Both the position numbers and the translations under genes were made by a program. Below the pieces are notes generated by a model that did not search any database, was not told the origin of the DNA, and saw only the letters and a list, made by a program, of their open reading frames with translations. This document shows positions 5,682-34,856 of a stretch of 64,000 nt of DNA, in pieces. The number at the start of each line of letters is the position of its first letter. The stretch's first letter is position 1. The DNA comes from Candidatus Poriferihabitaceae bacterium (GTDB lineage Bacteria; Pseudomonadota; Gammaproteobacteria; Arenicellales; Poriferihabitantaceae): the NCBI GenBank assembly GCA_965206445.1, contig CBDBJR010000002.1:520719-584718 (forward strand), given 5' to 3'.

Positions 5682-5720
5682 CTCTCTTCCGATAACACAG
5701 TCCGTCACAACGCGACAACA

Positions 5721-6051: not shown

Positions 6052-6086
6052 CGAGATGATTGTCGTGTAGAAAATCGCCTCCACAC

Positions 6087-6611
6087 TTATAGATTGAGCA
6101 CTTTTTTTAGCCATTCGGCGGCGGCGTTGACATCGCACAGGGCGGTCACTTCGGCTCCTTGTCGGCGGTAATCGATTTTCTCTCCTGCCAATTTGGCCGA
6201 CCAACCGCCGCTTTTCGACATCACCGCAACCGGTTTGTCGAGTTGCCATGCAAAAGCAATTTCGGAAAGCGTTCCCGACCCCCCGCGCACGCCGATACAG
6301 GCGTCACCGGCACGGGCAACAAGCAAATTACGAAACAGATCGAGCCCGGTCGGGATGACAATATCGACGAACGAATTGGCGTCATCGAACTTGGCCGACG
6401 GAATAATGCCGATGGTGTCGCCCGGCTCGTAGCCGGTGGCGGTTTTTGCACCGCGGCATACGGCGGTCATTGCGCCGCCGAGTCCACCACAAACGATTCG
6501 GCAGTTCAGGTTCACAATCTCCCGCCCAAGGTCTTCGCACAGCGACTCGACTTCGGGCGCACCGGAAAGATCGTGGGAGCCGAATACGGCAACGGATGGT
6601 TTTCTTTTCAT
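6087..6611 (-). CDS. TIGR00725/LOG-like (SLOG Rossmann fold) protein
   Basis: 174 aa. The motifs VFGS...CGGLGGAM...GGSGTLSEI are typical of the lysine-decarboxylase-like/LOG superfamily. Confidence 0.65.
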   Translation of the reverse strand: MKRKPSVAVFGSHDLSGAPEVESLCEDLGREIVNLNCRIVCGGLGGAMTAVCRGAKTATGYEPGDTIGIIPSAKFDDANSFVDIVIPTGLDLFRNLLVARAGDACIGVRGGSGTLSEIAFAWQLDKPVAVMSKSGGWSAKLAGEKIDYRRQGAEVTALCDVNAAAEWLKKVLNL

Positions 6612-6771
6612 TTGATGAATTATACAGGTTTATAGAGATAACAAGACGCCAAAAAAAAATCCGTCAAAGGGGTGTATAAGCTCAGAAACGGTTGGCAGTT
6701 TGCTATAATGCCGCCTCGGTGCCTGGCTTAACCGGCACATTGCCGACAATGGAAATTTTATACTCAGACCA

Positions 6772-16358: not shown

Positions 16359-18332
16359 ATGCAGCAGAACAAATTCACCTGGATCACCAATTTTATCTGG
16401 GGCATCGCCGACGCGACGCTGAGAGATGTTTCCAATAAGGGCAAGTACCGCGATGTGATCCTGCCGATGGCCGTGCTGCGGCGCTTTGACGTCGTGCTGG
16501 AGGAAAGCAAGCAGGCGGTTCTGGAACAAAAAACCTCACTCGACCACGCCGGCGTGGTGGAGCAGGAACAGGCGCTGCGCCAGGCCGCCGGGCAGGCTTT
16601 CTATAACACCTCGAAGTTTACGCTGCGCGACCTGCATGCGCGCGGCAGACAGGCGCAGCTCAAAGCCGACTTTGAAGACTATCTGGATGGCTTCTCGCAC
16701 AATGTGCAGGACATCCTGAACAATTTTGAATTCCGCAATCGGATCCCCCGACTGGTTAAAGCCGATGCGCTGGGGACGCTGATTGAAAAATTCCTTTCGC
16801 CGGAAATCAACCTGGGCCCAAAACCGGTGCTCAACGGCGACGGCTCGGTTAAACATCCGGGCCTCGACAATCACGCCATGGGCACGATTTTTGAAGAACT
16901 GGTACGCCGTTTCAACGAAGACAACAACGAAGAGGCGGGCGAGCACTGGACCCCGCGCGACGCCGTCGAGCTGATGGCCCGCTTGATCTTTCTGCCGATT
17001 GCCGATGACATCAAATCCAGCACCTATTTGCTGTACGACGGCGCCTGCGGCACCGGCGGTATGCTGACCGTGGCCGAGGAAACGCTGCAACGTCTGGCCA
17101 AAGAGCGCAACAAGCAGGTGTCGATCCATCTCTACGGCCAGGAAATCAACGCCGAAACCTACGCCATCTGCAAAGCCGACCTGCTGCTCAAGGGCGAGGG
17201 CGAGGCGGCGGACAATATCGTCGGCGGCTCCGAGCATTCCACGCTTTCCAACGACGCCTTCCCGTCACACGAGTTTGACTTCATGCTCAGCAATCCCCCG
17301 TACGGCAAGGATTGGAAAGTCGATTTGGAACGCATGGGCGGCAAGCGCGACCTCAACGACCCGCGCTTTATAGTTGAGCACAACGGCGATAATGCGTATT
17401 CGCTGGTCACCCGATCGAGTGACGGCCAGATGCTCTTCCTCGCCAACCTGCTGTCGAAGATGAAGCGCAATACAAAACTCGGCAGCCGCCTCGCCGAGGT
17501 GCACAACGGCAGCTCCCTGTTCACCGGTGACGCCGGCCAGGGCGAGAGCAACATCCGCCGCTGGATGATCGAAAACGATTGGCTCGAAGCCATTGTCGCC
17601 CTGCCGCTCAACCTGTTTTACAACACCGGCATCGCCACCTACATCTGGGTGCTGACCAACCGCAAACCCGAACACCGCCGGGGCAAAGTGCAGCTCATCA
17701 ACGCCACCGAGTGGTACCGACCACTGCGCAAAAACCTGGGCAAGAAAAACTGCGAGCTGGGCGAGGATGATATTCAACGCATCTGCGATGCATTTCTTGG
17801 CTTCAAGGAAACCGAGCAGAGCAAAATCTTCGATAACCGGGCTTTCGGCTACTGGAAAGTCACTGTGGAGCGGCCATTGCGCATTGCGGGTGCTGATTCT
17901 GACCGTGTCTGCAAGGCTGCTGAGATTAAGAAACTCAAGGAGGAAGGTGCCCGTAGCGAGGATGCTCGGCCTGTTGTCAGGAAGATACATAAACAGGGCA
18001 CCGTGCCTGACCCGCTGCGCGGTCTGTTTGCAGCGACTATCAACGGCAAGCCCGCCGTGGTAGAGTACGAACCCGACACCGACCTGCGCGACACCGAGCA
18101 GATTCCGCTGCTGGAAGAGGGTGGGATTGCGGCGTTTCTTGAGCGTGAAGTGTTGCCCTATGCTGCTGATGCGTGGTATGTTGAAGATAGCGTCAAGATT
18201 GGGTATGAGATCAGTTTTACTCGTTATTTTTATAAGCCGCAGCCGATGCGGACGCTGGAAGAAATCCGGGCGGATATTCTGGCATTGGAAGGCGAAACCG
18301 AGGGGCTGTTGTGCAAAATCATTGATGGATAG
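16359..18332 (+). CDS. hsdM: Type I restriction-modification system, methyltransferase subunit
   Basis: HsdM N-terminal pattern (NFIWGIAD.LRD), AdoMet motif LYDGACGTGGML and catalytic NPPYG. The start is at ATG 16359. Confidence 0.9.
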   Translation: MQQNKFTWITNFIWGIADATLRDVSNKGKYRDVILPMAVLRRFDVVLEESKQAVLEQKTSLDHAGVVEQEQALRQAAGQAFYNTSKFTLRDLHARGRQAQLKADFEDYLDGFSHNVQDILNNFEFRNRIPRLVKADALGTLIEKFLSPEINLGPKPVLNGDGSVKHPGLDNHAMGTIFEELVRRFNEDNNEEAGEHWTPRDAVELMARLIFLPIADDIKSSTYLLYDGACGTGGMLTVAEETLQRLAKERNKQVSIHLYGQEINAETYAICKADLLLKGEGEAADNIVGGSEHSTLSNDAFPSHEFDFMLSNPPYGKDWKVDLERMGGKRDLNDPRFIVEHNGDNAYSLVTRSSDGQMLFLANLLSKMKRNTKLGSRLAEVHNGSSLFTGDAGQGESNIRRWMIENDWLEAIVALPLNLFYNTGIATYIWVLTNRKPEHRRGKVQLINATEWYRPLRKNLGKKNCELGEDDIQRICDAFLGFKETEQSKIFDNRAFGYWKVTVERPLRIAGADSDRVCKAAEIKKLKEEGARSEDARPVVRKIHKQGTVPDPLRGLFAATINGKPAVVEYEPDTDLRDTEQIPLLEEGGIAAFLEREVLPYAADAWYVEDSVKIGYEISFTRYFYKPQPMRTLEEIRADILALEGETEGLLCKIIDG

Positions 18333-18396
18333 CGATCCGCTTATGGAGAATAAGGATATTAAAGAGTGGTAGATAGCTTTGTATTAAGCTAGAATT

Positions 18397-18426
18397 TTGA
18401 CTATGCTCATTTGCTTGTTGTACAAT
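18397..18426 (+). promoter_or_regulatory. Candidate sigma70 promoter for the DUF262 cassette
   Basis: -35 TTGACT (18397-18402), 18-nt spacer, -10 TACAAT (18421-18426). It lies ~40 nt upstream of ATG 18468. Confidence 0.4.
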
Positions 18427-18467
18427 AAAATTTGATACAGATTAAACGAGGGCTAAAAGGTGACATC

Positions 18468-19562
18468 ATGAATAAACCAGAAAATCTTAAATATATTGAG
18501 GAACAAACGTACATAGAAGATAGCAGTCCAGAGATACCGCCTCCTGACGTTGTCGCATACAATGAACTCCGGTCGTGTGCGGACCTCCATCGCATGGAGA
18601 CAAGTGGAATATTGAATATTCAACCTGAATTCCAACGCGAACTTGTATGGAAAAAGCCAGCTCAGACAAGATTTATCGATTCGCTAATTAAACAGCTTCC
18701 TATTCCAAGCATGTGCTTCAGTCTTGATTTTAAAGAACAAAAGTGGCAGGTAATCGATGGTCTCCAGAGAATGTCAGCAATTTGTAGTTTCCTTTCTGGA
18801 GAGCCGTGGAAATTATCACGTCTTGATGATATAGATAAAAAGATTTCAGGTCAGTCAGTCTCAGCTTTTCATAGTGATACATCTGATCTCCACCAATACT
18901 TGACTCGTGTTCAAAACCTGGCTCTCCCAATTACAGTAATACGGTGCGATTACTCTAATCAGTTGCATACCTATTATTTATTCACCATCTTTCATAGACT
19001 CAACACAGGAGGAATGAAGCTAAACAATCAAGAAATTCGGAACTGTATTTACTCAGGAGAACTGAATAATCTCTTAAAAAAGCTTGATCAATATCCGGAT
19101 TGGAAACGATTAAACCGTATTAAAAAGACAGTCGTATATCGATTCTCAAAACAGGAGCTTATTCTTCGCTTATTTGCATTTCACGATTCGTACAGGTCAT
19201 ACAATGGTCGATTGGCAAGTTTTTTAAACGAGTATATGAACAAGTATCGCAACTTACCAGAGAAGAAGAAAAATAAGAAACAAGACCTTTTTTGCCGCAC
19301 TGTAAATATAGTATACAGAAAGATATTCGAAGGAACTCCGCCACAGAAGCAATCTTTGTCCGTATTAGAAGCCTTACTTGTTGGTGTCTCTTTTAATCTG
19401 GATTATTTGGAGGCCATACCAAAAACAAAAATTATAAAACTGTACAAAGATCTTCTTAAACATGAAGAATTTTCGGAAGGAAAACTTATTGAGGGCCTCT
19501 CTGGCAAGCCACGAGTAATTGGTCGAATTGAAGCTGCACGTACGATATTTTCTGAAAAATGA
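18468..19562 (+). CDS. DUF262 (ParB-like/GmrSD N-terminal type) domain protein
   Basis: QPEFQRELVW and DGLQRM motifs (DUF262 FQR...W and DGQQR). No DUF1524/HNH tail. AT-rich. RBS aaaggtg. Confidence 0.75.
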   Translation: MNKPENLKYIEEQTYIEDSSPEIPPPDVVAYNELRSCADLHRMETSGILNIQPEFQRELVWKKPAQTRFIDSLIKQLPIPSMCFSLDFKEQKWQVIDGLQRMSAICSFLSGEPWKLSRLDDIDKKISGQSVSAFHSDTSDLHQYLTRVQNLALPITVIRCDYSNQLHTYYLFTIFHRLNTGGMKLNNQEIRNCIYSGELNNLLKKLDQYPDWKRLNRIKKTVVYRFSKQELILRLFAFHDSYRSYNGRLASFLNEYMNKYRNLPEKKKNKKQDLFCRTVNIVYRKIFEGTPPQKQSLSVLEALLVGVSFNLDYLEAIPKTKIIKLYKDLLKHEEFSEGKLIEGLSGKPRVIGRIEAARTIFSEK

Positions 19563-20053
19563 AAAACATTGAAAAGACGGAAATCGGTCAAAACCTAGAA
19601 ACTCTAAACATACTTTACACCAACAGTGCAAATAACAGAGAGGCTCTTTTTTACTCGAAACTTGCTGTGCTTGAACTTTGCGCGTGGCTTGAAGAAACCA
19701 TGGAAGAAGTGGTTCGGTCTTACGTTGTTCTTAATATAAAAAATAAAGAAAACCAAAATAGTATAGAAAACTCCATTATCAGACCAAATCATGGATTTGA
19801 CTATAAAGGTAATTTTCGGAAGATGCTTATTCGTGTTGTAGGGTTTCGAGGAATTGAGACTATGGAGGACGCAGCAGGTTCGGCTACAATCTATACTCTC
19901 GAAAGTACTACACGTACACTTAAGAAAACCAGAGACAGGCAAGTACACACTTATTTTAATACCACTATGAACTTGGAAGCCCCATCGATAATTATGGGAC
20001 ACTTTAATAATATGTTTCAAGCACTTGAGAAATTTCAGGATGCCATGAAATAA
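19559..20053 (+). CDS. Small HEPN-like protein (Rx4H motif), partner of DUF262
   Basis: 164 aa, all-helical by composition, with RDRQVH matching Rx4H near the C-terminal third. The start overlaps the DUF262 stop (ATGA). Confidence 0.45.
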   Translation: MKNIEKTEIGQNLETLNILYTNSANNREALFYSKLAVLELCAWLEETMEEVVRSYVVLNIKNKENQNSIENSIIRPNHGFDYKGNFRKMLIRVVGFRGIETMEDAAGSATIYTLESTTRTLKKTRDRQVHTYFNTTMNLEAPSIIMGHFNNMFQALEKFQDAMK

Positions 20054-20143
20054 GAATAGTTATAAAAAATTAGGATATTCTTTCAGGTTAAGGTTAATTA
20101 AATTAGTGAAAATAATAAGGCTAAAATAGCAAAGGTACTGAAA

Positions 20144-20446
20144 TTGCACCTCTATCCAAAATATAAAAATTCCATTGTTAAGTGGCTGATGGAAGCACCA
20201 GAGTATTCGAAAGTACGGCAGCTACGGGCTGTATCAGAGATGGGCGTCAGAAACGACGATAAACATTTCAGGGATAACTATGAGATTAGTTTTACTCGTT
20301 ATTTTTATAAGCCGCAGCCAATGCGGACGCTGGAAGAAATTCGGGCGGATATTCTGGCGTTGGAGCAGGAAAGTGGCGGGTTGGAAGCAATTATTGGGCG
20401 TGGAGAACTCAACATGAACTTGCTGGAGAAAATAAAAAATGACTAA
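20144..20446 (+). pseudogene. Chimeric scar: hsdS 5' stub fused to a copy of the hsdM 3' end
   Basis: N-terminal LYPKYKNSIVKWLMEAPEYSKVRQL resembles an HsdS N-terminus. 20279-20373 is near-identical to hsdM 18204-18298 (EISFTRYFYKPQPMRTLEEIRADILALE). Confidence 0.75.
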
Positions 20447-21896
20447 TGGCGCGCAAACATTCGACGACCACCAAAAAGGGATTCTGCTGAAACGGGCGGA
20501 ACCTGAAGTCAAGACTGATGAACCATGGGCAGATGACGCTTTAGATCGTAGTGAAGTGGCAAACGCGCTGACCAATCTTGTTTCGGGGCAGAAAGACCCG
20601 CTGGTTATAAGTCTGGATGGATACTGGGGAACAGGCAAAACATTTTTACTCAAGCGCTGGCAGGTGGAATTGGAAAAACAAGGCTTTCAGTCTATTTATT
20701 TCAATGCATGGGAAGACGACTTTTGCGACGATCCTCTTGTGGCCATCATAGGGCAACTATCAGCTAGCCTGGAAAAAGATTTTAAGAATATAGTAGATGA
20801 TATCAAAAAAGATATAGTACCTTTACTTGGAAAAATCCTTCTTAGCGTTATACACAATACCGCTGGTATAGATTTCGGTGGTGTCACTCTTAAAGAGCCC
20901 ACAGACTCGATTTTAGAAAAATATGCATCTCAAATAAAGCAGAAAAAAGAAATAAAAGAGCATTTGCAGAAAATATCAGACGAAGTAATGAAGAATACTA
21001 AGCAACCTTTGGTATTTATTATTGATGAACTTGATCGATGTCGCCCAACTTTCGCTATCGAGCTTTTGGAAAGAGTAAAACATATATTCGATATTCCCGG
21101 CATGGTTTTTGTTTTTGGTATCAATCAGGGCGAGCTGTGTTTAGCAATTAAATCAGTTTATGGGGACATTGATGCTGATACCTATCTTCGACGTTTTTTT
21201 GACATACCTTTATTATTGCCGAAAGCAAACATAGAGAATTTTTGTAGACATTTGATTGAGAAATATGAATTGGAAGAGTTTTTTTCGAAACTACGCATAA
21301 GTGCAAGTGACCCTATTCATCGGGAAGATTTTTATACTTTTAATACTTTCTTTCCTTCTTTCTATAATAATCTGGATTTGTCTCTTCGAGATGTTGATCA
21401 TTGTATCAGGGCATTTTCCTTTGTAGGAAAAAGTATTAAGAAAGGGCAAAAGATGTTTCCATTTCTTGTTGGCGCATTAATTGCCCTGCGAGTAAAAAAT
21501 CAGACCTGTTATCGAGATTTTATTACACAGAAATGTTTTGGAGCCGATGTTATGGATTACATCAATGAGGTGATGTCTGATGAAAATATAAATAGCAAAT
21601 TAGGAGACGCTCTCCGTGTTATAGAAATTATTTTGTATGTTACAGATCGTGGGCGCGGACGTGATTCTCTCGGACAATTAAGAATTTTTCTGGATGGCGA
21701 TGAGCCATCTCATCCAGAATATTTATCTAAAAAAATAAAAAAAATATGCAAAGAACAAGATTCAAATAAACAAATAATAGAGGCTTTTGATTTGCTGATA
21801 TCTGATAGCTGGGTTATCCGTGAAACTCCAGAGCTCAAGTATGTTTCCAGTTTGATTGAGCTTACTCAAATAACTACGCAGAGTAAGCCATGGTGA
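20439..21896 (+). CDS. KAP family P-loop NTPase
   Basis: Walker A in the KAP context (ISLDGYWGTGKTFLLKRW) and Walker B FIIDELDRC. 485 aa, AT-rich. Confidence 0.75.
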   Translation: MTNGAQTFDDHQKGILLKRAEPEVKTDEPWADDALDRSEVANALTNLVSGQKDPLVISLDGYWGTGKTFLLKRWQVELEKQGFQSIYFNAWEDDFCDDPLVAIIGQLSASLEKDFKNIVDDIKKDIVPLLGKILLSVIHNTAGIDFGGVTLKEPTDSILEKYASQIKQKKEIKEHLQKISDEVMKNTKQPLVFIIDELDRCRPTFAIELLERVKHIFDIPGMVFVFGINQGELCLAIKSVYGDIDADTYLRRFFDIPLLLPKANIENFCRHLIEKYELEEFFSKLRISASDPIHREDFYTFNTFFPSFYNNLDLSLRDVDHCIRAFSFVGKSIKKGQKMFPFLVGALIALRVKNQTCYRDFITQKCFGADVMDYINEVMSDENINSKLGDALRVIEIILYVTDRGRGRDSLGQLRIFLDGDEPSHPEYLSKKIKKICKEQDSNKQIIEAFDLLISDSWVIRETPELKYVSSLIELTQITTQSKPW

Positions 21897-22087
21897 AATT
21901 GCTTCCTTTCTCAGAATATGAAGATTCCATTGTTGGGTGGCTGATGGAAGTACCAGTGCATTGGAAAGTACAGCGGCTATGGATTGTCCTAAGGATGCGC
22001 ATCAGTAATTTAGACAAACACACTACGGATGGCGCGATTCCTGTTCGGCCCTGTAGCTTTGCTAAAAGGGTGATTTTTAACTGTTAG
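21890..22087 (+). pseudogene. hsdS 5' stub
   Basis: LLPFSEYEDSIVGWLMEVPVHWKVQRL parallels the N-terminus of the intact HsdS (KPYSKYKDSDVEWLGKISAHWKRL) and the stub at 20144. It is only 65 codons long. Confidence 0.65.
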
Positions 22088-22210
22088 GAATTCTTTAGTG
22101 TATGAGCCGAAGATATTTTCGGGAAAGGTAAGGATAATATGACAGATTATTTGTCTTTGGTTTCACTTCCAGATTAGGAATGTTAGACAAATATACTAAC
22201 CGCAAAATAT

Positions 22211-22786
22211 GTGCAGCAACCAGTAATTGAAGAAAAAATTGTGCGTGAAAAAACTTTTAAAGCATTAATAATTGGAGTAGTTGCCTCAGTATTGGGAGGG
22301 ATTTTTCTGCTATATGGCACAGAGTACATTGTCAAACCTTTTTTGTGGCTTAAGTCTGCTATTCTATGGTCTTGGAACTTTTTGATTTCATCTCATTCTC
22401 TGCCCGGATGGGTTTTGCTGATTGTTTTTTTGTTTGCTTCTCTGTTTATTATTTTTGCAGTGATTTATTTTTTGGTGAAGATCGATAAAAATTCTGAATC
22501 TAAACATCTACTGTATACCAAAGATATTATGTTTGGAGCAATATGGCGATGGAAGTGGATGGGAAATCAAATATCTAATATTTGGTGCTATTGCCCTTAC
22601 TGTGACACAATGCTGGTTTATGATGAGCATTGGGGAGAAACATACTTTAGATGTGAGAATTGCAATAACTCTGTTATAGCTACTTTTGACTGCTCTAAAA
22701 ACCGAGCGATACGTAGAGTCGCGCATCAGATTGATAGAAAACTCCGGTCGGGTGAATTTAGAAAAATTATCACATCTAACCAATAA
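22211..22786 (+). CDS. Membrane protein with C-terminal zinc ribbon (hypothetical)
   Basis: 2-3 N-terminal TM helices, then CYCPYC...(17)...CENC. GTG start, uncertain. Confidence 0.45.
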   Translation: MQQPVIEEKIVREKTFKALIIGVVASVLGGIFLLYGTEYIVKPFLWLKSAILWSWNFLISSHSLPGWVLLIVFLFASLFIIFAVIYFLVKIDKNSESKHLLYTKDIMFGAIWRWKWMGNQISNIWCYCPYCDTMLVYDEHWGETYFRCENCNNSVIATFDCSKNRAIRRVAHQIDRKLRSGEFRKIITSNQ

Positions 22787-22796
22787 CAAATAACCC

Positions 22797-24083
22797 ATGA
22801 ATACTCATCTTAAACCTTACTCAAAATACAAAGACTCTGACGTTGAGTGGCTGGGTAAAATATCGGCACACTGGAAACGATTGCCGGGTCGTGTGTGCTA
22901 TCGGGAGAAAAAGTCACCAAATACCGGCCCCCAAATTGACACAGTGCTGTCACTCAGCTTCGGCAAGATTGTCATAAAGCCACCTGAAAAGTTACATGGG
23001 CTAGTCCCGACATCTTTCGAGACATACCAGTTAATTGAACCCAATGATATTGTCATCCGCCCAACAGATCTACAAAATGACTGGAACAGCCTCCGGTTTG
23101 GTTTGGCGAACACAACAGGCATTATCACATCTGCCTATATTTGCCTCCGCACGAGTTCTGTACTCACACCACAATACGGACACCTACTGCTTCATACCTA
23201 CGATTTGAAAAAAATATTTTATGGATTAGGCTCTGGTTTGCGACAAAATTTAGCTTGGCGTGACTTTAAATATTTACCTTGCTTAGTTCCACCCCTACTC
23301 GAACAAACCGCTATTGTCCGTTATCTTGATTATTTCGACCGGCGGATTCGGCGTTATATTGATGCCAAGCAAAAGTTGATCAAGCTGTTGGAGGAGCAGA
23401 AGCAGGTCGTCATTCACCGCGCCGTTACTCGGGGGCTTGATCCTGATGTTCCTCTTAAGCCCTCCGGTGTTGAATGGTTGGGGGAGGTGCCGGAGCATTG
23501 GGAAATACGGCGGCTAAAGCTTTTGGCGCAAATTAGGACTGGTGGACATGATACTGTGGACAGAGTGGAAGAAGGAGCGTACCCGTTTTTTGTCCGCTCT
23601 CAGAATATTGAGCGGATCAACAGTTATTCGTTCAACGGTGAGGCTGTATTGACTGCTGGTGATGGTGCAGGAGTCGCCAAGGTGTTTCATTACTTCGTCG
23701 GCAAGTTTGATTACCACCAACGAGTCTACAAGTTCAGTAATTTTAGAGAAATCACAGGAAAATACTTCTTCTACTTCTTTAGGAATACACTCCGGTTTGA
23801 AGCATTCCGAGAAACAGCAAAGTCAACCGTCGATTCACTTCGACTTCCAATGCTCCAGAACTTTCCTGTTCCATTACCACCGCATAAAGAACAGGAGAAG
23901 ATCGTTGAGGTTATTGAATCTGATACTGCCGACATTGATGCCACGATTGAACGCGCCCGCCGCGGAATCGACCTGCTGCAAGAATACCGCACCCGCCTGA
24001 TTGCCGACGTGGTTACCGGCAAACTCGACGTGCGTGAAGTGGCGGCGGCGTTGCCCGATGATCCGGCGCCGCTATCGGGCTAG
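22797..24083 (+). CDS. hsdS: Type I restriction-modification system, specificity subunit
   Basis: Two TRD halves, each introduced by an (S/D)xVEWLGxxxxHW block, with conserved coiled-coil spacers (LLEEQKQVVIHRAVTRGL; LLQEYRTRLIADVVTGKLDVRE). Confidence 0.88.
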   Translation: MNTHLKPYSKYKDSDVEWLGKISAHWKRLPGRVCYREKKSPNTGPQIDTVLSLSFGKIVIKPPEKLHGLVPTSFETYQLIEPNDIVIRPTDLQNDWNSLRFGLANTTGIITSAYICLRTSSVLTPQYGHLLLHTYDLKKIFYGLGSGLRQNLAWRDFKYLPCLVPPLLEQTAIVRYLDYFDRRIRRYIDAKQKLIKLLEEQKQVVIHRAVTRGLDPDVPLKPSGVEWLGEVPEHWEIRRLKLLAQIRTGGHDTVDRVEEGAYPFFVRSQNIERINSYSFNGEAVLTAGDGAGVAKVFHYFVGKFDYHQRVYKFSNFREITGKYFFYFFRNTLRFEAFRETAKSTVDSLRLPMLQNFPVPLPPHKEQEKIVEVIESDTADIDATIERARRGIDLLQEYRTRLIADVVTGKLDVREVAAALPDDPAPLSG

Positions 24084-24322: not shown

Positions 24323-27300
24323 ATGCTTATTGTTAAACCCTATGGCAGGAGTGCCATAACCAAACCCGTTTCGGGGGAGTCTCGCAGAGTACTGCGTAAA
24401 CGCGATGGGGGTATCGATCGTGATTTCAAGGAGTTCTGCCGGGAACACCCCGATCTGGTTCTTGCCCAATGGATTTCTGTTGTCGATAAAATTGCCCGCA
24501 AACCGTCCGGTCGAGGCCAGCCGCCGGAAGCCCAGCGCAAGTTTCGCCAGGAGATTGGCGCAGTGCTTTGGCCGTATCTGACTTCAAAGGAGATATTGTC
24601 GCCGGAGTTGGAGCAGAAATTCTGGTCAAAGGTTCATCCCTATCCGGAGCCTGATAGCAAGGATAAGCCCAGGAAAGCCAAACCGAAAGTGGCTAAATCG
24701 CACCCGAAAAAGACCGGTGGCGAGGCCAAACCCGAGGGCAGGTGGTACAAACGCTTCCTGGGCGATGCGGAACCTGATAACGCGGTTCTCAGTGATCTGC
24801 CGGACAAAATCTTTGCGCATCTGTATGAAACGGAATACCGGATTGCGCCCACCCGCCCGAACAAATCCAAAGGCTTGATTGCCGCACGCGCCGAGTCAAT
24901 TTCCGGTAACCTGTTGCAGCGATCATCCCTGTCCGGGTGTGACTGGACTGAAGACGACGAGGAAGCATACGCCCGGGGCGGCAATGTCGCCGCAGAGATA
25001 AAGAGGAAGATCAAGGAACTGGAGGTGCCTGCAAAGGGTAAGAAGTCGCAGAGGGCATCCCTGCGTGATGTCGCTCCTGTGCTGTTCGGGCAATATGGGC
25101 GGCTGTTCCACGGCGAAAATGATACCGCGCTATCCGTCGCCGAGGCCGGGCAAAAACATCCCGGCCTCTTGGCATTGCATCAGGCGGTGAAAGAGGCGTA
25201 CAAGCGCCGTCTGTCCGGCCACAAATCTGCCCGGCATAAATCGGTTGCCGAAGTGCTGCCCGATAGCATGGACGCGCTTTTTAGGCTGGTTCATAGCGCC
25301 CGGCAGAATGCCCGGGTCAGCAATTTGATCCGAATCGGAAAGATTGCCCATTATGAAGCCGCCCCGAATAGTATCGTCGATGACTGGCCGGCAGATCGTC
25401 TTGCTGCCAGTTTGTATTGGACCAGCGATGGTCAGGCGGAAATCAAACGGACTGATGCGTTTGTCCGTGTCTGGCGCACGGCACTGGTGCATGCGGCCCT
25501 GACGCTGACTGATTGGGCTGACCCGGAAGGCAGGATTGCCGACGATATATTAATCAGCGACAGCAAGGAAGAAGTACTCGACATGCTTGATAGTGCTGCT
25601 TTCGACCGCAAGGCATCTGTCCTGTTTGGCAGCCGAGCGCAGGATCTGACATGTCTGCCGCTTGAGAAGAAAAAAGAATGCTGGTCAGCCATTTGCACAG
25701 CAGTAGCACAGCTCCGTAACAGCAGTTTCCATTTCAAGGGGATTGACCGGTTTGCACAATCCATCAATGACGCTGCCACGGGCGATTTCCAGTTCGATTT
25801 TCTTGTCGACCTGTACAAACAGGACCGGGCTGCCCGGTTGAAATATCTGGTCGAAACACTGCAAGGTGTCAAGGCAGACCGGCACCTCGACAAGGGGCAA
25901 TTCAAACAGCTCATTCTGGAGATAAGCACCGGTTCACCCCGCATGATTCCGTTGCCGCGATTTCAGCGGGTGTTGGTGCGTTACAGGGACGCATTCTGGT
26001 CAAAAGAATCTTCTGTTGTGAAACTGCCTGCACCCGGGAATCGTCAGAAAATGGAAGAGTCCCCGGCGCTTCGCTGCCAGTACACATGCCTGAAACTGCT
26101 CTACGAGCGCGCTTTTCCGGCCTGGCTCAAAGACAGTGATACGGGCACATTGAGACGCTGGATTGACCGCGCCGTTAAGCGCGCCACCTCGGATGCACAA
26201 AAGATCAATCGTGATGCGTCGGCTGTTGCGCGCGCTACCGATATAATCTGCCTGCATGACGGCGACACGATTGCTACTTTCCTTGACCGTCTGGCGGCAG
26301 AGACGGCGACGGAAATCCGCGTACAAAAGGGATACGACCCTGATCCCGAAGCCGCCCGCAAGAAGTCGGCTTACCTGGACAATCTGAATTGTGACGTGAT
26401 GCTCCAGGCGTTTGGCGACTTTCTCAATGAGAAGAAATTCGACTGGTTGCTTGAACTGCAGGACGGTCAAGAGGATATGCCGCGATATGATCTGCCTGAG
26501 CTGCCCCCGAACGAAACCGGGATACAAGCATGGCAGCGTGTTCTTTATATTGTTTTGCACCTCGTCCCGGTTGGTGAAGTTTCCCGCCTGCTCCATCAGA
26601 TTCAAAAGTGGAACATTCTTACCCTGAAATCTGCGCACGGGGGCCGGAGTCGGCAGCCTGATGCGGCACGTTCGGATGAAGCTTTTGCCCCCTTGACGGA
26701 TGCTGACTGTCTGTTCGAGGTGCTCACGCTGTATCTCGATATGCACGACGCCAAGTTCGAGGGCGGCGAGAGCCTGATGAGAGGCGATGCGCTGCCTCGC
26801 TGGTTTGAATCTGAACAGGATTGCAAAAAGATTTTTCCCGAACAAGATGGGGCGCTTGATGACGCGCACCTGCCGCTTCGCGGTCTGCGGGAAATGCAGC
26901 GGTTTGGCGCCTTGAAATGCCTGGAACCGATTTTCGAAGCCCATAAGATCACCGGCGAGGAAGTGTCCGGGTATTTGGAATTGAATAGAGGGGAGGGCGG
27001 TGAATCGAAAATCGTGCGCGCCCAGAAGGTGCGTGAGACGCTGCACGCGGATTGGACCAGCAAGCCCAAAGATTTTGACAAAGACAAGAAGAAGCAGCGG
27101 TGTTATTGGGATGCGCTGGCAACGGTCACGCAGCACCGGCATTTTGCTAACCGCGTCCACCTGATTGATCATGTTCAGCTGTATTATCTCCTGATGCAGA
27201 TTTTGGGCAGGCTGGTTGATTTTGCCGGTTTGTGGGAGCGCGACCTTTATTTCACAGCGCTTGGCCTGATGATCGAGAAAAATGAGCAGCCGGATTCGAT

Positions 27301-27907
27301 ATTCAAGCCGAAAGGGATTAAGCGCCTGAAACAAGGCAGGATTGTGGAGGCGCTTCGTGAAATTATTGATGAGGATACCGGGCGGGAGATAAAACGGGAG
27401 ATAGAGCGACTCTTTGATTCGAATTTCACTTCCCGAGACAGAAATATCCGTATCAGGAACAATTTCATGCACTTCAATATGCTGCGCTCAGGGCGAAACC
27501 CCGACGCCGGTACAGCGGCAGTGCCCCTGAACCTGACCGCACTGGTAAACGACTGCCGATCACTTATGGGTTATGATCGCAAGCTGAAGAATGCAGTTTC
27601 TAAATCTGTGAAGGATTTATGTGCGCGTGAAAAGCTCGATTTGTGCTGGAAAACCGATCCCAGGCATTGTCTGACCCAGGCCACCGTCAACACGAAACAG
27701 GCCCGGCACCTCAAGACAAAATGTATCAGGGAGAATCTGTGCGGAATACACTACATAAAGATGGCTGCGGATCTTTTTGCCGGTAGAGAATTGTCCAGCA
27801 AGGATGTCACGTCAAAAGGCTTTGATGAAGCTGAACAGGAAAAGCAAAAAAATCGGCCAAAAAAGCGAGAAAAAAACGCCAGACAAGGCGGTCAACGAAG
27901 AAGATGA
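24323..27907 (+). CDS. cas13a: Cas13a (C2c2)-like type VI-A CRISPR effector, two HEPN RNase motifs
   Basis: 1194 aa. Rx4H motifs RNSSFH (R465/H470) and RNNFMH (R1045/H1050), spaced as in characterised Cas13a. It is directly followed by a co-oriented array whose repeat resembles Cas13a repeats. Confidence 0.8.
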   Translation: MLIVKPYGRSAITKPVSGESRRVLRKRDGGIDRDFKEFCREHPDLVLAQWISVVDKIARKPSGRGQPPEAQRKFRQEIGAVLWPYLTSKEILSPELEQKFWSKVHPYPEPDSKDKPRKAKPKVAKSHPKKTGGEAKPEGRWYKRFLGDAEPDNAVLSDLPDKIFAHLYETEYRIAPTRPNKSKGLIAARAESISGNLLQRSSLSGCDWTEDDEEAYARGGNVAAEIKRKIKELEVPAKGKKSQRASLRDVAPVLFGQYGRLFHGENDTALSVAEAGQKHPGLLALHQAVKEAYKRRLSGHKSARHKSVAEVLPDSMDALFRLVHSARQNARVSNLIRIGKIAHYEAAPNSIVDDWPADRLAASLYWTSDGQAEIKRTDAFVRVWRTALVHAALTLTDWADPEGRIADDILISDSKEEVLDMLDSAAFDRKASVLFGSRAQDLTCLPLEKKKECWSAICTAVAQLRNSSFHFKGIDRFAQSINDAATGDFQFDFLVDLYKQDRAARLKYLVETLQGVKADRHLDKGQFKQLILEISTGSPRMIPLPRFQRVLVRYRDAFWSKESSVVKLPAPGNRQKMEESPALRCQYTCLKLLYERAFPAWLKDSDTGTLRRWIDRAVKRATSDAQKINRDASAVARATDIICLHDGDTIATFLDRLAAETATEIRVQKGYDPDPEAARKKSAYLDNLNCDVMLQAFGDFLNEKKFDWLLELQDGQEDMPRYDLPELPPNETGIQAWQRVLYIVLHLVPVGEVSRLLHQIQKWNILTLKSAHGGRSRQPDAARSDEAFAPLTDADCLFEVLTLYLDMHDAKFEGGESLMRGDALPRWFESEQDCKKIFPEQDGALDDAHLPLRGLREMQRFGALKCLEPIFEAHKITGEEVSGYLELNRGEGGESKIVRAQKVRETLHADWTSKPKDFDKDKKKQRCYWDALATVTQHRHFANRVHLIDHVQLYYLLMQILGRLVDFAGLWERDLYFTALGLMIEKNEQPDSIFKPKGIKRLKQGRIVEALREIIDEDTGREIKREIERLFDSNFTSRDRNIRIRNNFMHFNMLRSGRNPDAGTAAVPLNLTALVNDCRSLMGYDRKLKNAVSKSVKDLCAREKLDLCWKTDPRHCLTQATVNTKQARHLKTKCIRENLCGIHYIKMAADLFAGRELSSKDVTSKGFDEAEQEKQKNRPKKREKNARQGGQRRR

Positions 27908-27972
27908 AACATATTTTTTTTTATTGCAAAAATCAGGATTTTCTTTATGTATTATTGCGTTATCAGTTAGCT
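27908..27972 (+). promoter_or_regulatory. CRISPR leader (AT-rich) of array 1
   Basis: 65-nt AT-rich stretch between the cas13a stop and the first repeat. The degenerate repeat is at the far end of the array. It is duplicated at 29860-29924. Confidence 0.6.
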
Positions 27973-28869
27973 GTTGAAGATGACCCCCATATGAAGGGGG
28001 ACTACACCGACAGATGTTCCCAATCCCACCGATTCTGCAGTTGAAGATGACCCCCATATGAAGGGGGACTACACCTAAAACGGCGTTATATCGCATCTGA
28101 CGGCCGTTGAAGATGACCCCCATATGAAGGGGGACTACACCCGTAATCCAGTTGGATCAAATTCTATTGCTGTTGAAGATGACCCCCATATGAAGGGGGA
28201 CTACACCTGCGTCCGACTGCACCAATTGCGCGGTCAGGTTGAAGATGACCCCCATATGAAGGGGGACTACACCTGCGTCCGACTGCACCAATTGCGCGGT
28301 CAGGTTGAAGATGACCCCCATATGAAGGGGGACTACACCCTTGCAAGGATGATGTTGTTTTGCTCGTTTGTTGAAGATGACCCCCATATGAAGGGGGACT
28401 ACACCCACAACGTCTTTGCGGTGCTCGTTCGCTTTCGTTGAAGATGACCCCCATATGAAGGGGGACTACACCTGATCAACCCGCCGATTAAATTCCGGCG
28501 TCGTTGAAGATGACCCCCATATGAAGGGGGACTACACCAGCGCGGACGGTGTATAGAAGGTGGTCGTAGTTGAAGATGACCCCCATATGAAGGGGGACTA
28601 CACCTGTATGGGCGTGATACTGCGCATTTGCACCGTTGAAGATGACCCCCATATGAAGGGGGACTACACCATCACCACCATTATTTCGCTGGCCGGCCTG
28701 GTTGAAGATGACCCCCATATGAAGGGGGACTACACCCGGATCCATTGACTCCATGCCTTCCCTATAGTTGAAGATGACCCCCATATGAAGGGGGACTACA
28801 CCCAAGACGTTATTTTTGTAATCTGTTTTTCAAGTTGAAGATAACCCCCATATAAAGAGGAACCACACG
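27973..28869 (+). CRISPR. CRISPR array 1: 14 x 36-nt repeat (gttgaagatgacccccatatgaagggggactacacc), 13 spacers of 30-31 nt
   Basis: All repeats were located by eye at 27973, 28040, 28106, 28172, 28238, 28304, 28370, 28437, 28503, 28569, 28635, 28701, 28767 and 28834. The last repeat is degenerate. Spacers 4 and 5 are identical. Confidence 0.97.
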
Positions 28870-29779
28870 ACGTAGCCAGAAAAGCAGGAACGAGCACTAC
28901 TTTGTTGCTCTCTGTGAGCCGAACAGCGTTACGGAGAAGATTGCCGCTGAGCGGCCAGCGGAGTATGGTGTCAGTTAGTTGTATGGCGAGGTGCGGGATT
29001 ACAACCGCGCACGCTCATCGACTTAAACCTTCCGGGGTGGAATGGTTAGGGGAGGCGCCGGCGCATTGGGACGTTTTTCGCCGCAAAACACAGGCGGCAA
29101 ACCGTACTGAGCGAATATCCATACATGAAAACACATCGTCCATCATCATACGGAATCCCGAGGCTGGCCACCGAAGCCGGCCCTGTTGGCCATCCCGGGC
29201 CGGCTGATTTGCCGGGGAAATGCGCACTCCATTGTCGCCATCAGCGTATAAATTTGTTTACCCGTTGTTTAGTTTTCGAGAATTTCTCGGAAAAAAATAC
29301 CCTGAATACAGTCAGTTAGGTCTGAAAAGTTGTTTACCCGTTGTTTTATTATCGGTCGATACAACCAGATATAACCTATCGTAGCGGGCAGGAGTCAATC
29401 GTACATCTGGCAGCGGATTGACACGGATTCTGTTGCGTGGGCAGAGCAAAACAGCAAGCTGTTGGGCGGTTACCTTATCAAATGCCGGTTCACGTGCTGT
29501 CGATGCCGGTGCCAACCCGGATCAATCAGGTAAGATTAATCGGACGGCTGTGCGGGCAAAACAGGGGACATCCTGTCAATATCGCAAACATAAATATCGC
29601 AAACGGGTGGAATGGCTTATGGCGGAAAGTTTTCCGTGGGATATGATTGCGCGTATTGGCGTACACTCGCGCAATGCTGGTGATCAGGCCACGGCGGCTC
29701 AAGCCGTCGGGCAGAAACCGACAGTCCAGATTTTCTCTGAGTGGTATTATTAGCGCGGGGGCAAACATGATCCATTTTA
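28870..29779. repeat. Post-array segment, copy 1 (non-coding; contains an hsdS-like fragment)
   Basis: Homologous to 30426-31336. 29021-29071 encodes LKPSGVEWLGEAPAHWD, matching the HsdS central block. It ends with the first 5 codons of the macro gene (ATGATCCATTTTAAA, ATG at 29767). Confidence 0.85.
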
Positions 29780-29924
29780 AAGCTGAACAGGAAAAGCAAA
29801 ATAATCGGCCAAAAAAGCGAGAAAAAAACACCAGACAAGGCGGTCAACGAAGAAGATGAAACATGTTTTTTTTTATTGCAAAAATCAGGATTTTCTTTAT
29901 GTATTATTGCGTTATCAGTTAGCT
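29780..29924 (+). pseudogene. Duplicated cas13a 3' end (~26 codons) plus leader copy
   Basis: Near-identical to 27828-27972. Together with the macro start codons it forms a chimeric 30-codon ORF, 29767-29859 (MIHFKAEQEKQNNRPKKREKNTRQGGQRRR). Confidence 0.85.
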
Positions 29925-30425
29925 GTTGAAGATGACCCCCATATGAAGGGGGACTACACCGCTCTCCACATGATCTAACTTACCATTAAAGTTGAAGATG
30001 ACCCCCATATGAAGGGGGACTACACCCCAAGTTCGGTAGTATTTTTAATCCAGAAGGTTGAAGATGACCCCCATATGAAGGGGGACTACACCAGTGTCGA
30101 TTGGATTAGTCGGCCATGTCATAGTTGAAGATGACCCCCATATGAAGGGGGACTACACCAGTGTCGATTGGATTAGTCGGCCATGTCATAGTTGAAGATG
30201 ACCCCCATATGAAGGGGGACTACACCTCAACCGAGCGGTATGTGACCGGGCTTGCGGTTGAAGATGACCCCCATATGAAGGGGGACTACACCAGCTGAAC
30301 CGCAATATGAGCGTGTCCGTCAGTTGAAGATGACCCCCATATGAAGGGGGACTACACCACGGGCGCGCGCGTCCCCTGATTTATCAAGAGTTGAAGATGA
30401 CCCCCATATAAAGGGGAACTACACG
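29925..30425 (+). CRISPR. CRISPR array 2: 8 x the same 36-nt repeat, 7 spacers of 30-31 nt
   Basis: Repeats at 29925, 29991, 30057, 30124, 30191, 30257, 30323 and 30390. The last repeat is degenerate. Spacers 3 and 4 are identical. No spacer is shared with array 1. Confidence 0.97.
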
Positions 30426-31322
30426 ACGTAGCCAGAAAAGCAGGAAGGAGCACTACCTTGTTGCTCTCTGTGAGCCGGGCAGCGTTACGGAGAAGGCTGC
30501 CGCTGAGCGCCCAGCGGGCTATGGTGTCAGTTAGTTATATGGCGAGGTGCGAGATTACAACCGCGCACGCTCATCGCCTTAAACCTCCCGGGGTGGCGTG
30601 GTTGGGGGAGGCGCCGGCGCATTGGGACGTTTTTCGCCGCAAAACACCGGCGGCAAACCGTACTGAGCGAGTATCCATACATGAAAACACATCGTCCATC
30701 ATCATACGGAATCCCGAGGCTGGCCACCGAAGCCGGCTCTGTCGGCCATGCCGGGCCGGCTGATTTGCCGGGGCAATGCGCACGCCATGGTCTCCATCAG
30801 CGTATAAATTTGTTTATACGTTGTTTAGTTTTCGAGGATTTCTCAGAAAAAAATACCCTGAATACAGGCAGTTAGGTCTGAAAAATTGTTTACCCGTTGT
30901 TTTATTATCGGCCGATACAACCAGATATAACCTATCGTAGCGGGCAGGAGTCAATCGTACATCTGGCAGCGGATTGACACGGATTCTGTTGCGTGGGCAG
31001 AGCAAAACAGCAAGCTGTTGGGCGGTTACCTTATCAAATGCCGGTTCACGTGCTGTCGATGCCTGTGCCGACCCGGATCAATCAGGTAAGATTAATCGGA
31101 CGGCTGTGCGGGCAAAACAGGGGACATCCTGTCAATATCGCAAACATAAATATCGCAAACGGGTGGAATGGCTTATGGCGGAAAGTTTTCCGTGGGATAT
31201 GATTGCGCGTATTGGCGTACACTCGCGCAATGCTGGTGATCAGGCCACGGCGGCTCAAGCCGTCGGGCAGAAACCGACAGTCCAGATTTTCCCTGAGTGG
31301 TATTATTAGCGCGGGGGCAAAC
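30426..31322. repeat. Post-array segment, copy 2
   Basis: Homologous to 28870-29766. The last ~340 nt show only 3 mismatches; the first ~530 nt are clearly more diverged. Confidence 0.85.
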
Positions 31323-31805
31323 ATGATCCATTTTAAAACGGGCAATATCCTGACCGAAGACGCCGAAGCAATCGTCAACACGGTCAACTGCGTCGGCGTC
31401 ATGGGCCGCGGTATCGCGCTGCAATTCAAACAGAGTTTTCCCGACAACTTCAAGGCGTATGCTGATGCGTGTAAGCAGAAAGCAGTACAGCCTGGGCGCA
31501 TGTTTATCTTTGCAACCGGGCAAACCACCAACCCCCGCTATATCATCAATTTTCCGACCAAGCGGCACTGGCGCGAAATGAGCCGGATGGAAGATATTGA
31601 GGCCGGGTTGTCGGCGCTGGTCAAAGAGATTGAAAAACGCAGGCTCCGTTCAATCGCGATTCCGCCCCTTGGCAGCGGTCTGGGCGGGCTGGACTGGGCG
31701 CAGGTTCGCCCGCGCATAGAAAAAGCGCTCCGGGGCTGTGACGACCTTCGGGTCATTGTCTATACACCGCACCCGGTACCGAAACCGGACAAGATGGCGT
31801 ATTAA
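31323..31805 (+). CDS. Macro domain (ADP-ribose binding/hydrolase) protein
   Basis: 160 aa. IVNTVNCVGVMGRGIALQFK and IAIPPLGSGLGGLDW match macro-domain signature blocks. The start is ATG 31323. Confidence 0.75.
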   Translation: MIHFKTGNILTEDAEAIVNTVNCVGVMGRGIALQFKQSFPDNFKAYADACKQKAVQPGRMFIFATGQTTNPRYIINFPTKRHWREMSRMEDIEAGLSALVKEIEKRRLRSIAIPPLGSGLGGLDWAQVRPRIEKALRGCDDLRVIVYTPHPVPKPDKMAY

Positions 31806-34800: not shown

Positions 34801-34856
34801 AGCGCTGGATGACCGACACGGTGTTTGACCTCACCTACCAAAGAGGCGCGCCCTGA
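31845..34856 (+). CDS. hsdR: Type I restriction enzyme, restriction/helicase subunit
   Basis: 1003 aa. N-terminal PD-(D/E)xK block (LDLGLFVNGLPVATFELKN), Walker A HSAGSGKSNS, DEAH box IIIDEAHSSQGG and a helicase C region. Confidence 0.9.
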   Translation: MPTDTTERGLERLICAALTGHPGDADSAGGTDYKVALRPTHYSTVWLYGDASDYNREYCVDLRQFSAFLQATQPQVAAALALDEDGAARRSFLARLEGQISRRGVIDVLRNGVKHGPHQLDLFYGTPSPGNEKARTLYADNRFSVTRQLRYSNDATRLALDLGLFVNGLPVATFELKNSLTKQTAADAVRQYRRDRDPREKLFAFGRCVVHFAVDENEVYFCTHLTGKTSWFRPFNRGCNDGAGNPLNPNGLKTDYLWREVLTRRRLTDILENYAQVVKLKDNTTATTKKVQIWPRYHQLDVVRQLLADVRANGAGRRYLIQHSAGSGKSNSIAWLAHQLIGLEKDGGTVFGSIIVVTDRVLLDRQIRDTIRQYAQVNATVGHAERSGDLRRLIESGKQIIISTVQKFPFILDEISSQQRDRRFAIIIDEAHSSQGGKTSAAISQALAHDGEAGEEDTFEDRINRLIAARRLLPNASYFAFTATPKGKTLEVFGRPEPQADGTTRHLPFHTYTMKQAIQEGFILDVLAHYTPVNSYYRLVKTIEPDPQFDTRRAQKKLRRYVEGHEHAIRLKAEIMVDHFHQQVFGPRRVGGQARAMVVTGGIAQAIRYFHAISDYLTECNRPYRAIVAFSGEHDYGGANVTEASLNGFASNKIADCIRAEPYRFLVCADKFQTGYDEPLLHTMYVDKTLSGIKAVQTLSRLNRAHPKKHDVFVLDFMNQTELIREAFSDYYRATILSAETDPNKLHDLQADLDGAQVYSQQQIDDFAERYLGGAKREQLDPLLDACVAVYLNQLDEDGQVDFKGKAKGFVRTYGFLSSLLPYTNLQWEKRSIFLNFLISKLPAPQEADLSRGILDAIDMDSYRAEKQAMQQIRIADEDAEIDPVPASAGGHRTEPELDRLSNIIRSFNEHFGNITWGDTDRVMQLITETVPVQVAKNRAYRNAQQNSDKRNARIEHSKALSRVMTAIMRDDTELFRQFMDNPDFKRWMTDTVFDLTYQRGAP

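Follow-up and report, generated by a model that had tools for sequence, protein, structure and literature searches.

The 64,000-nt stretch of DNA analysed here (the window; Candidatus Poriferihabitaceae bacterium, contig CBDBJR010000002.1, positions 520,719 to 584,718) contains, at 16.2-34.9 kb on the + strand, a single co-directional type I restriction-modification (R-M) operon with many inserted genes. Its gene order is hsdM – PD-T4-2 – KAP – TM/Zn – hsdS – cas13a/CRISPR – macro – hsdR, where TM/Zn denotes a transmembrane (TM) protein with a zinc ribbon. The cassettes between hsdM and hsdS are bordered by remnants of these two genes, and comparison with sister alleles of the locus indicates that the stack of defence modules was likely assembled by recombination among hsd loci of one family, whether allelic or otherwise related, through initial non-homologous joining and later homologous shuffling among close relatives.

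A first-pass annotation of the window had described three AT-rich cassettes between the end of hsdM (18332) and the start of the intact hsdS (22797), with hsdS stubs and a ~95-nt copy of the hsdM 3' end as scars between them. All of these features are found, displaced by a few bases at most (Table 1), and the GC content of the cargo is 0.35-0.40, compared with 0.58-0.65 in hsdM, hsdR and the flanks. The segment 18204-18308 is 88% identical to 20279-20383, and in the core of this repeat (18204-18289 and 20279-20364; hereafter the arm) 82 of 86 nt are identical, including a 32-nt exact block. We searched the region with profiles of the HsdM C-terminus and HsdS N-terminus built from 64-81 family members (64 HsdS N-termini). 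The hsdM 3' copy (20276-20407) matches profile positions 134-178 and reaches the HsdM C-terminus (E 1.2e-22). The similarity of the stubs to HsdS N-termini, for which an alignment had been proposed as a check, is significant in both cases: stub 1 matches positions 4-46 (E 1.1e-5; PADLOC Specificity_I 4.9e-5) and stub 2 positions 4-57 (E 1.2e-10; PADLOC 8.3e-7), and the two are 73% identical at the nucleotide level over 127 nt. Stub 1 meets the hsdM copy at a non-homologous junction, the limits of which are set by the end of similarity to stub 2 at 20265 and the beginning of similarity to hsdM at 20279. No hsdM remnant was found upstream of the TM/Zn cassette in the window.

Partial hsdS copies in type I loci are a hallmark of phase-variable specificity switches (PMC7672463, PMC7394358), and the stubs could in principle be silent hsdS segments of such a shufflon or inverton. 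This is almost certainly not the case here, as the stubs are direct rather than inverted and hold the conserved N-terminus only, with no target-recognition domain; neither an invertase gene nearby nor long inverted repeats were found.

The closest homologues of the KAP protein (75-88% amino acid identity) are encoded on contigs of one metagenome, which mostly carry the same chromosomal locus, recognisable by its TRAP/PhyH flanking genes and by an hsdM that is 97-98% identical. These sister alleles, here referred to by L numbers, hold one, two, three or four cassettes and bear out the earlier proposal that cargo from related type I loci was stacked serially. L085 has the arrangement hsdM-KAP-hsdS with a single uninterrupted arm, and KAP is the sole cargo both there and in L072. 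L084 reads hsdM-PD-T4-2-[stub, hsdM 3' copy]-KAP-hsdS; the window allele has the same arrangement with the addition of stub 2 and TM/Zn; and L081 and L083 have a fourth cassette, SDH_protease, together with a second scar (hsdS stub and 142-codon hsdM copy) in front of PD-T4-2. L082 is a decayed allele with the order KAP-[stub, 144-codon hsdM copy]-GmrSD-hsdS; it lacks hsdM and nearly all of hsdR and has retained its cargo, and its right end matches window positions 34776-35404 at 98%. Both L082 and L083 are interrupted by insertion sequence elements encoding DDE transposases.

The arm of L085 (9839-9924) aligns to both arm copies of the window, which can therefore be described as L085 with an additional 2,075 nt, an 86-nt direct repeat marking the two ends. 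The sequence that forms the KAP-specific end of the truncated copy in the window is, in L085, the 3' end of the intact hsdM, directly ahead of KAP. Such hsdM tails are cargo-specific in 12 of the 12 copies compared, with separate tails for KAP, PD-T4-2 (tail P), the SDH cassette and GmrSD, and the intact hsdM always carries the tail of the first cassette. The KAP-specific tail overlaps the KAP start and holds a GGAG ~10 nt 5' of the KAP ATG that, as read from the sequence, is a likely ribosome-binding site. At the other end of this cassette, KAP and stub 2 overlap at the stop of the former and the start of the latter, just as KAP and the native hsdS do in sister loci, and in L084 and L085 the intact hsdS begins at the position of stub 2. 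Similarity among the hsdS alleles of the window and sister loci is limited to conserved regions.

The junction at 20266-20278 recurs in L081, L083 and L084, each of which has a 100-amino-acid gene called at the position equivalent to the chimeric ORF (open reading frame) of the window. This bears on whether the stack could be an artefact of assembly, produced when the shared arm linked reads of strains that differ in cargo. The arm is indeed a repeat and the sister contigs are low-coverage metagenome assemblies, but a mis-join at a repeat cannot make a novel junction between stub and hsdM, and this junction is seen, with sequence divergence, in four independent contigs. The KAP protein of the window is moreover on record on a 3.36-Mb contig, and we consider an artefact highly improbable.

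Comparison of the alleles also indicates where crossovers have fallen. One scar of ~500 nt is common to L082 and L081/L083, where it is 93-97% identical and has the same junction (…ATAAAACC followed directly by GCTGAGATTAA), joining hsdS codon ~85 to HsdM residue ~521. Its flanks hold unrelated cargo on both sides: KAP and GmrSD in L082, as opposed to SDH and PD-T4-2 in L081/L083. At its left side, L082 matches L084 through the native KAP-hsdS junction as far as hsdS codon ~24 and then passes into the shared scar at the conserved P-x-H-W motif; on the right, L082 and L081/L083 part inside the arm, just after the 32-nt block, which is identical in the six closest loci. The intact hsdM of the window is of the resident type up to ~18200 and has the PD-T4-2 tail beyond, and the truncated copy ahead of PD-T4-2 in L081/L083 is of a diverged hsdM type, only 78% identical over 17919-18118. 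These observations suggest that crossovers were placed in the conserved parts of scars, namely the hsdM 3' arm and the hsdS 5' motif, with three clear cases alongside breakpoints within cargo.

The moving unit would be a module made up of the last 45-145 codons of hsdM including the cargo-specific tail, the cargo itself, and the first 25-85 codons of the following hsdS, with the hsdM tail carrying or abutting the translation start of the cargo. Since cargo ends overlap the hsd genes (the KAP start with the hsdM stop, the KAP stop with the hsdS start), complete cargo could be moved only if parts of both neighbours went with it. Replacement of cargo by a double crossover through both arms would leave no scar, so that each scar needs at least one non-homologous join. 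In a first step, a rare event would have joined two loci head to tail by one crossover in homologous hsd sequence plus one non-homologous join of the donor hsdS 5' end to the resident hsdM 3' end. Possible routes are homology-facilitated illegitimate recombination, Campbell-type integration of a circularised fragment, or a tandem integration from which sequence was later deleted; the outcome would be a scar of hsdS stub and truncated hsdM 3' copy, with the older cargo keeping its own tail. In a second step, to which the comparison of alleles points, the conserved scar parts (a 32-nt perfectly conserved core in an arm of ~86-245 nt, and, in hsdS, the region of the P-x-H-W motif) would offer close relatives the homology needed for ordinary recombination, by which modules are added, removed or swapped. 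New modules appear to have been placed beside the intact hsdM (PD-T4-2, then the SDH-protease cassette) and beside the intact hsdS (the TM/Zn protein together with a new hsdS allele). The earlier idea that the hsdM 3' and hsdS 5' ends act as homology arms holds in so far as crossovers appear to lie within the arm and the motif, but needs to be amended, as the scars require a non-homologous join and the exchange is plausible only in close relatives.

The scars might instead be passive debris, left after tandem integration of whole loci and loss of the redundant hsdS-hsdR-hsdM genes by deletion, with no later role in recombination. A locus of the hsd family, L048, carries a heavily decayed second hsdM/hsdS/hsdR set at 1870-7452, upstream of the intact locus, which shows that type I loci of this family can come to lie in tandem and then undergo deletion. 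The duplication of the CRISPR array in the window, described below, shows that plain tandem duplication can yield the same kind of junction between a 5' stub and a 3' copy, and the first join cannot be distinguished from the route of tandem integration and deletion. Nevertheless, ~10 hsdM remnants are all at most ~145 of 657 codons long and the hsdS stubs at most ~85 of ~430, which is very unlikely to result from random deletion ends. Passive debris would also leave unexplained that one scar is found with different cargo on both sides and with switches inside its conserved parts, and that L085 and L084 differ exactly at the arm. We therefore regard passive debris as unlikely and prefer assembly by joining and subsequent shuffling.

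Several observations weigh against this preferred reading. Breakpoints fall inside cargo too, for instance at the PD-T4-2 A/B boundary and at the hypervariable patch of KAP, so that the arms are not exclusive crossover sites, and the left switch of L082 lies in a short imperfect motif of ~14 nt, below the usual RecA requirement. In the loci sampled from GTDB (see below), the 330 nt upstream of ten extra hsdM 3' copies contain no hsdS stub match better than E 0.3, indicating that the pair of stub and copy is not universal, and the stack of L154 has no detectable scars. The direction of change can be read both ways, as L085 could equally be the product of a loss of PD-T4-2 through arm-arm recombination. 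Finally, the sister contigs are long-read metagenome assemblies of 2-8x coverage, in which small indels are unreliable.

The reach of arm-guided exchange is further constrained by the conservation of the hsd ends. No extra conservation at synonymous sites was seen in the hsdM arm when 79 loci were compared (third-position identity 0.58 in the arm and 0.61 elsewhere, rank 261 of 408 runs), and its plain nucleotide conservation is only a local maximum (0.79-0.82, compared with 0.89 at the catalytic motifs). At the DNA level, conservation of the hsdS 5' end is poor. Together these restrict plausible exchange guided by the arms to close relatives; exchange of this kind between phyla was considered and dropped, given the lack of nucleotide-level constraint on the hsdM arm.

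HsdM shares 73-81% amino acid identity with its counterparts in 80 loci across many phyla, many of them from metagenome-assembled genomes. In this GTDB sample of the hsd family (80 loci), hsdM and hsdS were both found in 66, at distances from 11 bp to 5.4 kb; the two genes are adjacent in 12 of the 66 and separated by cargo in the other 54. The cargo forms 128 sequence clusters in which defence families are dominant, including GmrSD (GmrSD-like cargo being the commonest), AbiD, PRTase-CE, HerA+SIR2, Fic, ThsB-TIR, AbiEii-like ATPases, Mrr and HNH. Extra hsdM 3' fragments are present in the hsdM-hsdS gap of 8 of the 80 loci; all reach the HsdM C-terminus, their starts differ, and none is longer than ~140 codons. 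In all three cases tested (L002 with L016, L052 with L003/L023, L045 with L017), the copy and the cargo behind it are collinear with the intact hsdM 3' end and the same cargo elsewhere. The hsdS-hsdR gap mirrors this pattern with hsdS 3' copies and hsdR 5' stubs, and in L032 an hsdR 5' stub stands directly before an hsdS 3' copy.

A look for loci with a single cassette between the same arms had been proposed. KAP alone provides such a locus (L085, with a single arm), whereas PD-T4-2 alone between these arms was found in none of 65 metagenome loci. These 65 loci encode PD-T4-2A homologues at 44-68% identity, but the hsd family of the window flanks none of them, and only L098 has a type I system, a distant one, downstream. 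An hsd stack contains one of the three KAP homologues at ~50% identity; the other two are free-standing. As to the refutation raised earlier, that related genomes show the cassettes moving with other flanks, sister alleles keep the same arms, but more distant PD-T4-2 and KAP homologues are mostly outside type I R-M loci. Therefore, cargo enters hsd loci from elsewhere by other routes, and arm-guided shuffling would then act among close relatives.

Some further features of the family were observed in passing. The hsdM frame runs ~140 codons past the usual C-terminus (profile positions 180-313) in L015, L025, L035, L042, L045, L048, L052, L056-L058, L061, L066 and L069; this extension looks like a fused extra domain, and isolated copies of it also occur in gaps. 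In L018, L043, L054, L064, L065, L067 and L069, ~65 codons downstream of hsdS weakly resemble the HsdS C-terminal region (E 1e-5 to 1e-10) and are either a small conserved gene or old hsdS 3' copies. A palindromic element resembling REP (repetitive extragenic palindromic) sequences (GTAGGGGCGACCGGCCGGTCGCCC) is repeated beside hsdM 3' fragments in L066 (~13100) and L048 (~13600 and ~14060).

Table 1. Coordinates of genes, remnants and junctions of the hsd operon, numbered from the first nucleotide of the window.
Feature	Position	Strand	Remarks
hsdM, type I methyltransferase	16359..18332	+	likely start MQQNKFTW; longest ORF from 16248
hsdM 3' arm, copy 1 (YEISFTRYFYKPQPMRTLEEIRADILALE)	18204..18289	+	inside intact hsdM; 82/86 identical to 20279-20364
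PD-T4-2-specific hsdM tail P (GETEGLLCKIIDG, then stop)	18290..18332	+	directly after arm copy 1
Promoter-like site TTGACT-18-TACAAT	18397..18426	+	hsdM/PD-T4-2 spacer; consensus match only
PD-T4-2_A, DUF262/GmrSD_N	18432..19562	+	PADLOC 1e-154 (residues 17-374 of 376); Pfam GmrSD_N 9.6e-23
PD-T4-2_B, small HEPN-like	19559..20053	+	PADLOC 2.6e-48 (residues 4-164 of 164)
hsdS 5' stub 1	20141..20272	+	~46 codons, cut just past DKH motif
Chimeric ORF, 100 codons	20144..20446	+	stub 1 fused in frame to hsdM 3' copy; stop overlaps KAP start
Non-homologous junction, stub 1 to truncated hsdM 3' copy	20266..20278	+	placeable only within ~13 nt
Truncated hsdM 3' copy	20279..20446	+	arm 20279-20364 and KAP-specific tail (QESGGLEAIIGRGELNMNLLEKIKND, then stop)
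KAP-family P-loop NTPase, PADLOC candidate PDC-S20	20439..21896	+	Pfam KAP_NTPase 3.9e-37; PDC-S20 7.7e-109 (residues 17-477)
hsdS 5' stub 2	21890..22087	+	65-codon ORF; profile match at 21896-22072
TM/Zn protein	22211..22786	+	two membrane helices and CxxC…CxxC zinc ribbon; no Pfam/PADLOC family
Intact hsdS	22797..24083	+	Pfam Methylase_S (2 stretches); PADLOC Specificity_I 1e-94, residues 5-417
cas13a	24323..27907	+	between hsdS and hsdR; PADLOC Cas13a 7.8e-202
CRISPR array 1	27973..28833	+	36-nt repeats ending …GGGGACTACACC
hsdS central-region fragment, array trailer	29019..29132	+	HsdS amino acids ~215-260; E 6e-10
Tandem-duplication junction	29647..29859	+	first 46 codons of long macro ORF fused to cas13a 3' copy
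CRISPR array 2, duplicated unit	29925..30389	+	repeat comparison
hsdS central-region fragment, array trailer	30575..30685	+	HsdS amino acids ~215-260; E 2.3e-7
Macro-domain protein	31203..31805	+	directly upstream of hsdR; Pfam Macro 2.3e-26; PADLOC DarG 6.8e-79; resembles DarG N-terminal part
hsdR	31845..34856	+	Pfam HSDR_N, ResIII, SWI2_SNF2, T1R_D3-like

With HsdM, HsdS and HsdR all encoded, the locus is a type I R-M operon, predicted to be active. The hsdM product matches Pfam N6_Mtase (7.7e-51) and HsdM_N (4.5e-22) and the PADLOC model MTase_I PDLC03029 (9.4e-239). HsdS profile matches cover the N-terminal, internal-repeat and C-terminal regions, with two target-recognition halves, and the conserved regions of hsdS are a central one at ~23289-23518 and a 3' one at ~23952-24083. 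The composition profile that the first-pass annotation had called for shows breaks in GC at third codon positions (GC3) at the hsdM 3' and hsdS 3' parts: GC3 falls from 0.75-0.9 to ~0.5 over the final ~220 nt of hsdM, and its recovery is confined to the last ~160 nt of hsdS (rise from ~23920). We had initially taken the whole AT-rich block (18.1-23.9 kb) for one import; this was revised, as the sister loci show separate events, and the GC3 breaks in hsdM and hsdS remain. Promoter-like sites in the region (12) are not above shuffled controls (13.2 ± 3.6), and terminator-like sites number 17, compared with 9.5 ± 3.5 in shuffled controls, mostly on the opposite strand. In a search of 15.5-35.5 kb, Rfam matched only a tRNA-Ser, on the strand opposite to the operon, and an overlapping sub-threshold sX4. 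No near-identical DNA to 18100-22900 was found in the complete E. coli genomes or plasmids searched.

The adjacent A and B genes of the first cassette are, by their full-length model matches, the two-gene anti-phage system PD-T4-2, with protection predicted. The probable start of PD-T4-2_A is the ATG at 18468, and its stop overlaps the start of PD-T4-2_B, which has a Pfam HEPN_RiboL-PSP match (3.6e-6) slightly below the family cut-off. The KAP NTPase translation contains a Walker A motif, GYWGTGKT; its residues ~60-170 (20619-20950) form a hypervariable patch, where identity between alleles is 53-63%, compared with 90-100% in the sequence to either side. For the TM/Zn protein, with neither a Pfam nor a PADLOC match, only three homologues were found among 5.8 billion proteins (L081, L086, L087), all within hsdM-hsdS stacks of cas13a-bearing loci; those of L086 and L087, which are at different chromosomal sites, are followed by further scars of the same kind. 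Conserved motifs are WRWxW and CYCPxC…CExCN, and we consider this protein a candidate rare defence gene.

Downstream of hsdS, cas13a and the adjacent arrays with 36-nt repeats form a type VI-A CRISPR-Cas module; cas1 and cas2 are absent from the locus, and Pfam Cas13a families match the sister-locus products. The arrangement of cas13a behind hsdS recurs in all sister loci and in L086 and L087 (other chromosomal sites), and in none of the 80 GTDB family loci. An hsdS-like fragment had been noted after each array. These fragments are real, but they correspond to the central region of HsdS rather than to the N-terminus, and one fragment was doubled by tandem duplication in place of two insertions. 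Within 27828-29961, the duplicated unit of 1,952 nt begins at cas13a codon ~1168 and reaches the macro gene start, with 27828-28009 and 29780-29961 being 98% identical, and its duplication accounts for the second CRISPR array as well as for the second hsdS-like fragment. At the duplication junction, codons 1-46 of the long macro ORF match at 97.8% and the Cas13a C-terminus at 92%; these 46 codons are mostly leader together with the first ~5 codons of the likely true macro gene. Identical neighbouring spacers are found at 28172/28238 and 30057/30124, and each array trailer (29250-29354, 30806-30910) contains two copies, 76 nt apart, of a 29-nt repeat (AAATTTGTTTACCCGTTGTTTAGTTTTCG) with no Rfam match.

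Stand-alone macro proteins, 57-69% identical across phyla, are also encoded directly 5' of hsdR in L002, L005, L007, L013, L016, L023, L026, L030, L044, L054 and L055. A DarT partner was not detected in the macro-bearing loci; L087 has a DarT gene further downstream.

The literature that we searched offers no explanation of the route by which defence genes enter type I R-M, BREX, DISARM and Hma operons. In the present locus and its sister alleles, the process has left a readable record of cargo-specific tails, scars of stub and copy, a series of one to four cassettes at one chromosomal site, and a reused scar. For annotation, this gives the rule that truncated hsdM 3' and hsdS 5' ends, where they occur within an hsd operon, show the borders of cassettes and can delimit new candidate defence genes, of which TM/Zn is an example. 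It also provides a testable model for the accumulation of nested genes in defence operons, including the gain and loss of immunity genes within a population. A broader and rather speculative possibility is that type I R-M operons of this hsd family are cassette platforms that need no recombinase: any defence gene that has landed between hsdM and hsdS would become a portable module with an hsdM 3' arm at one end and an hsdS 5' head at the other, arm-arm recombination could excise it as a circle that re-enters a related hsd locus by a single crossover, and turnover could proceed at population speed without mobile-element machinery, with hsdM tails acting as translation-coupling adaptors.

The head-to-tail layout of the stack invites comparison with integron arrays. 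Both have serial, co-directional, promoter-distal cassettes of single function, additions are often at the anchor-gene end (here beside the intact hsdM, akin to attI), and direct repeats could release circles. The first-pass annotation had spoken of an integron-like mechanism, which survives as a formal analogy only, and a site-specific cassette system with a dedicated recombinase acting at the scars is very improbable. Unlike integrons, the stack has no IntI, attI or attC: every ORF in 16.2-34.9 kb is accounted for and none is a recombinase gene, no attC-like inverted repeats are present at cassette ends, and the junctions are not fixed, differing by event (hsdM profile positions 34-150, hsdS positions 24-85). 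General recombination, dependent on sequence identity and hence limited to close relatives, would take the place of the integrase.

By analogy, the first step resembles homology-facilitated illegitimate recombination, reportedly described in naturally transformable bacteria in 2002 by de Vries and Wackernagel and by Prudhomme and colleagues. There too, one homologous anchor is combined with a nearby non-homologous join, and this combination would make the duplicated hsdM piece short and have it end at the junction.

Recombination of hsd alleles is known from hsdS domain swapping and from S. aureus, in which hsdM/hsdS alleles and adjacent defence genes are exchanged by transduction plus homologous recombination (PMC12829572). 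Conserved hsd segments serve as crossover sites in those cases as in ours, but the known cases swap alleles, whereas the unequal joins of the window leave duplicated gene ends and cargo accumulates. The proposed mechanism thus resembles such classical exchange of hsd alleles with an illegitimate join on one side added to it.

The locus belongs to the known class of type I R-M operons that contain defence genes. Such embedding, seen also in BREX, DISARM and Hma operons, has been described as 'guilt-by-embedding' (Payne et al., bioRxiv 10.1101/2024.01.29.577857) and was preceded by examples such as PrrC, the Campylobacter rlo genes and V. cholerae TgvAB (PMC11411939). As in those operons, cargo lies co-directionally between hsd genes, the KAP protein matches one of the PDC models, which stem from the embedding screen of Payne et al., and GmrSD-like cargo is the commonest here too. 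Embedding as such is therefore already known, and the scar-based mechanism appears to be new: a literature search largely outside subscription journals found no paper on hsdM 3' and hsdS 5' remnants as cassette borders. The embedded-defence studies catalogue cargo and not its arrival, the word 'recombination' being absent from the Payne preprint, whereas in the locus described here the borders of the cassettes are visible as hsd remnants and the allelic series shows cassette gain or loss.

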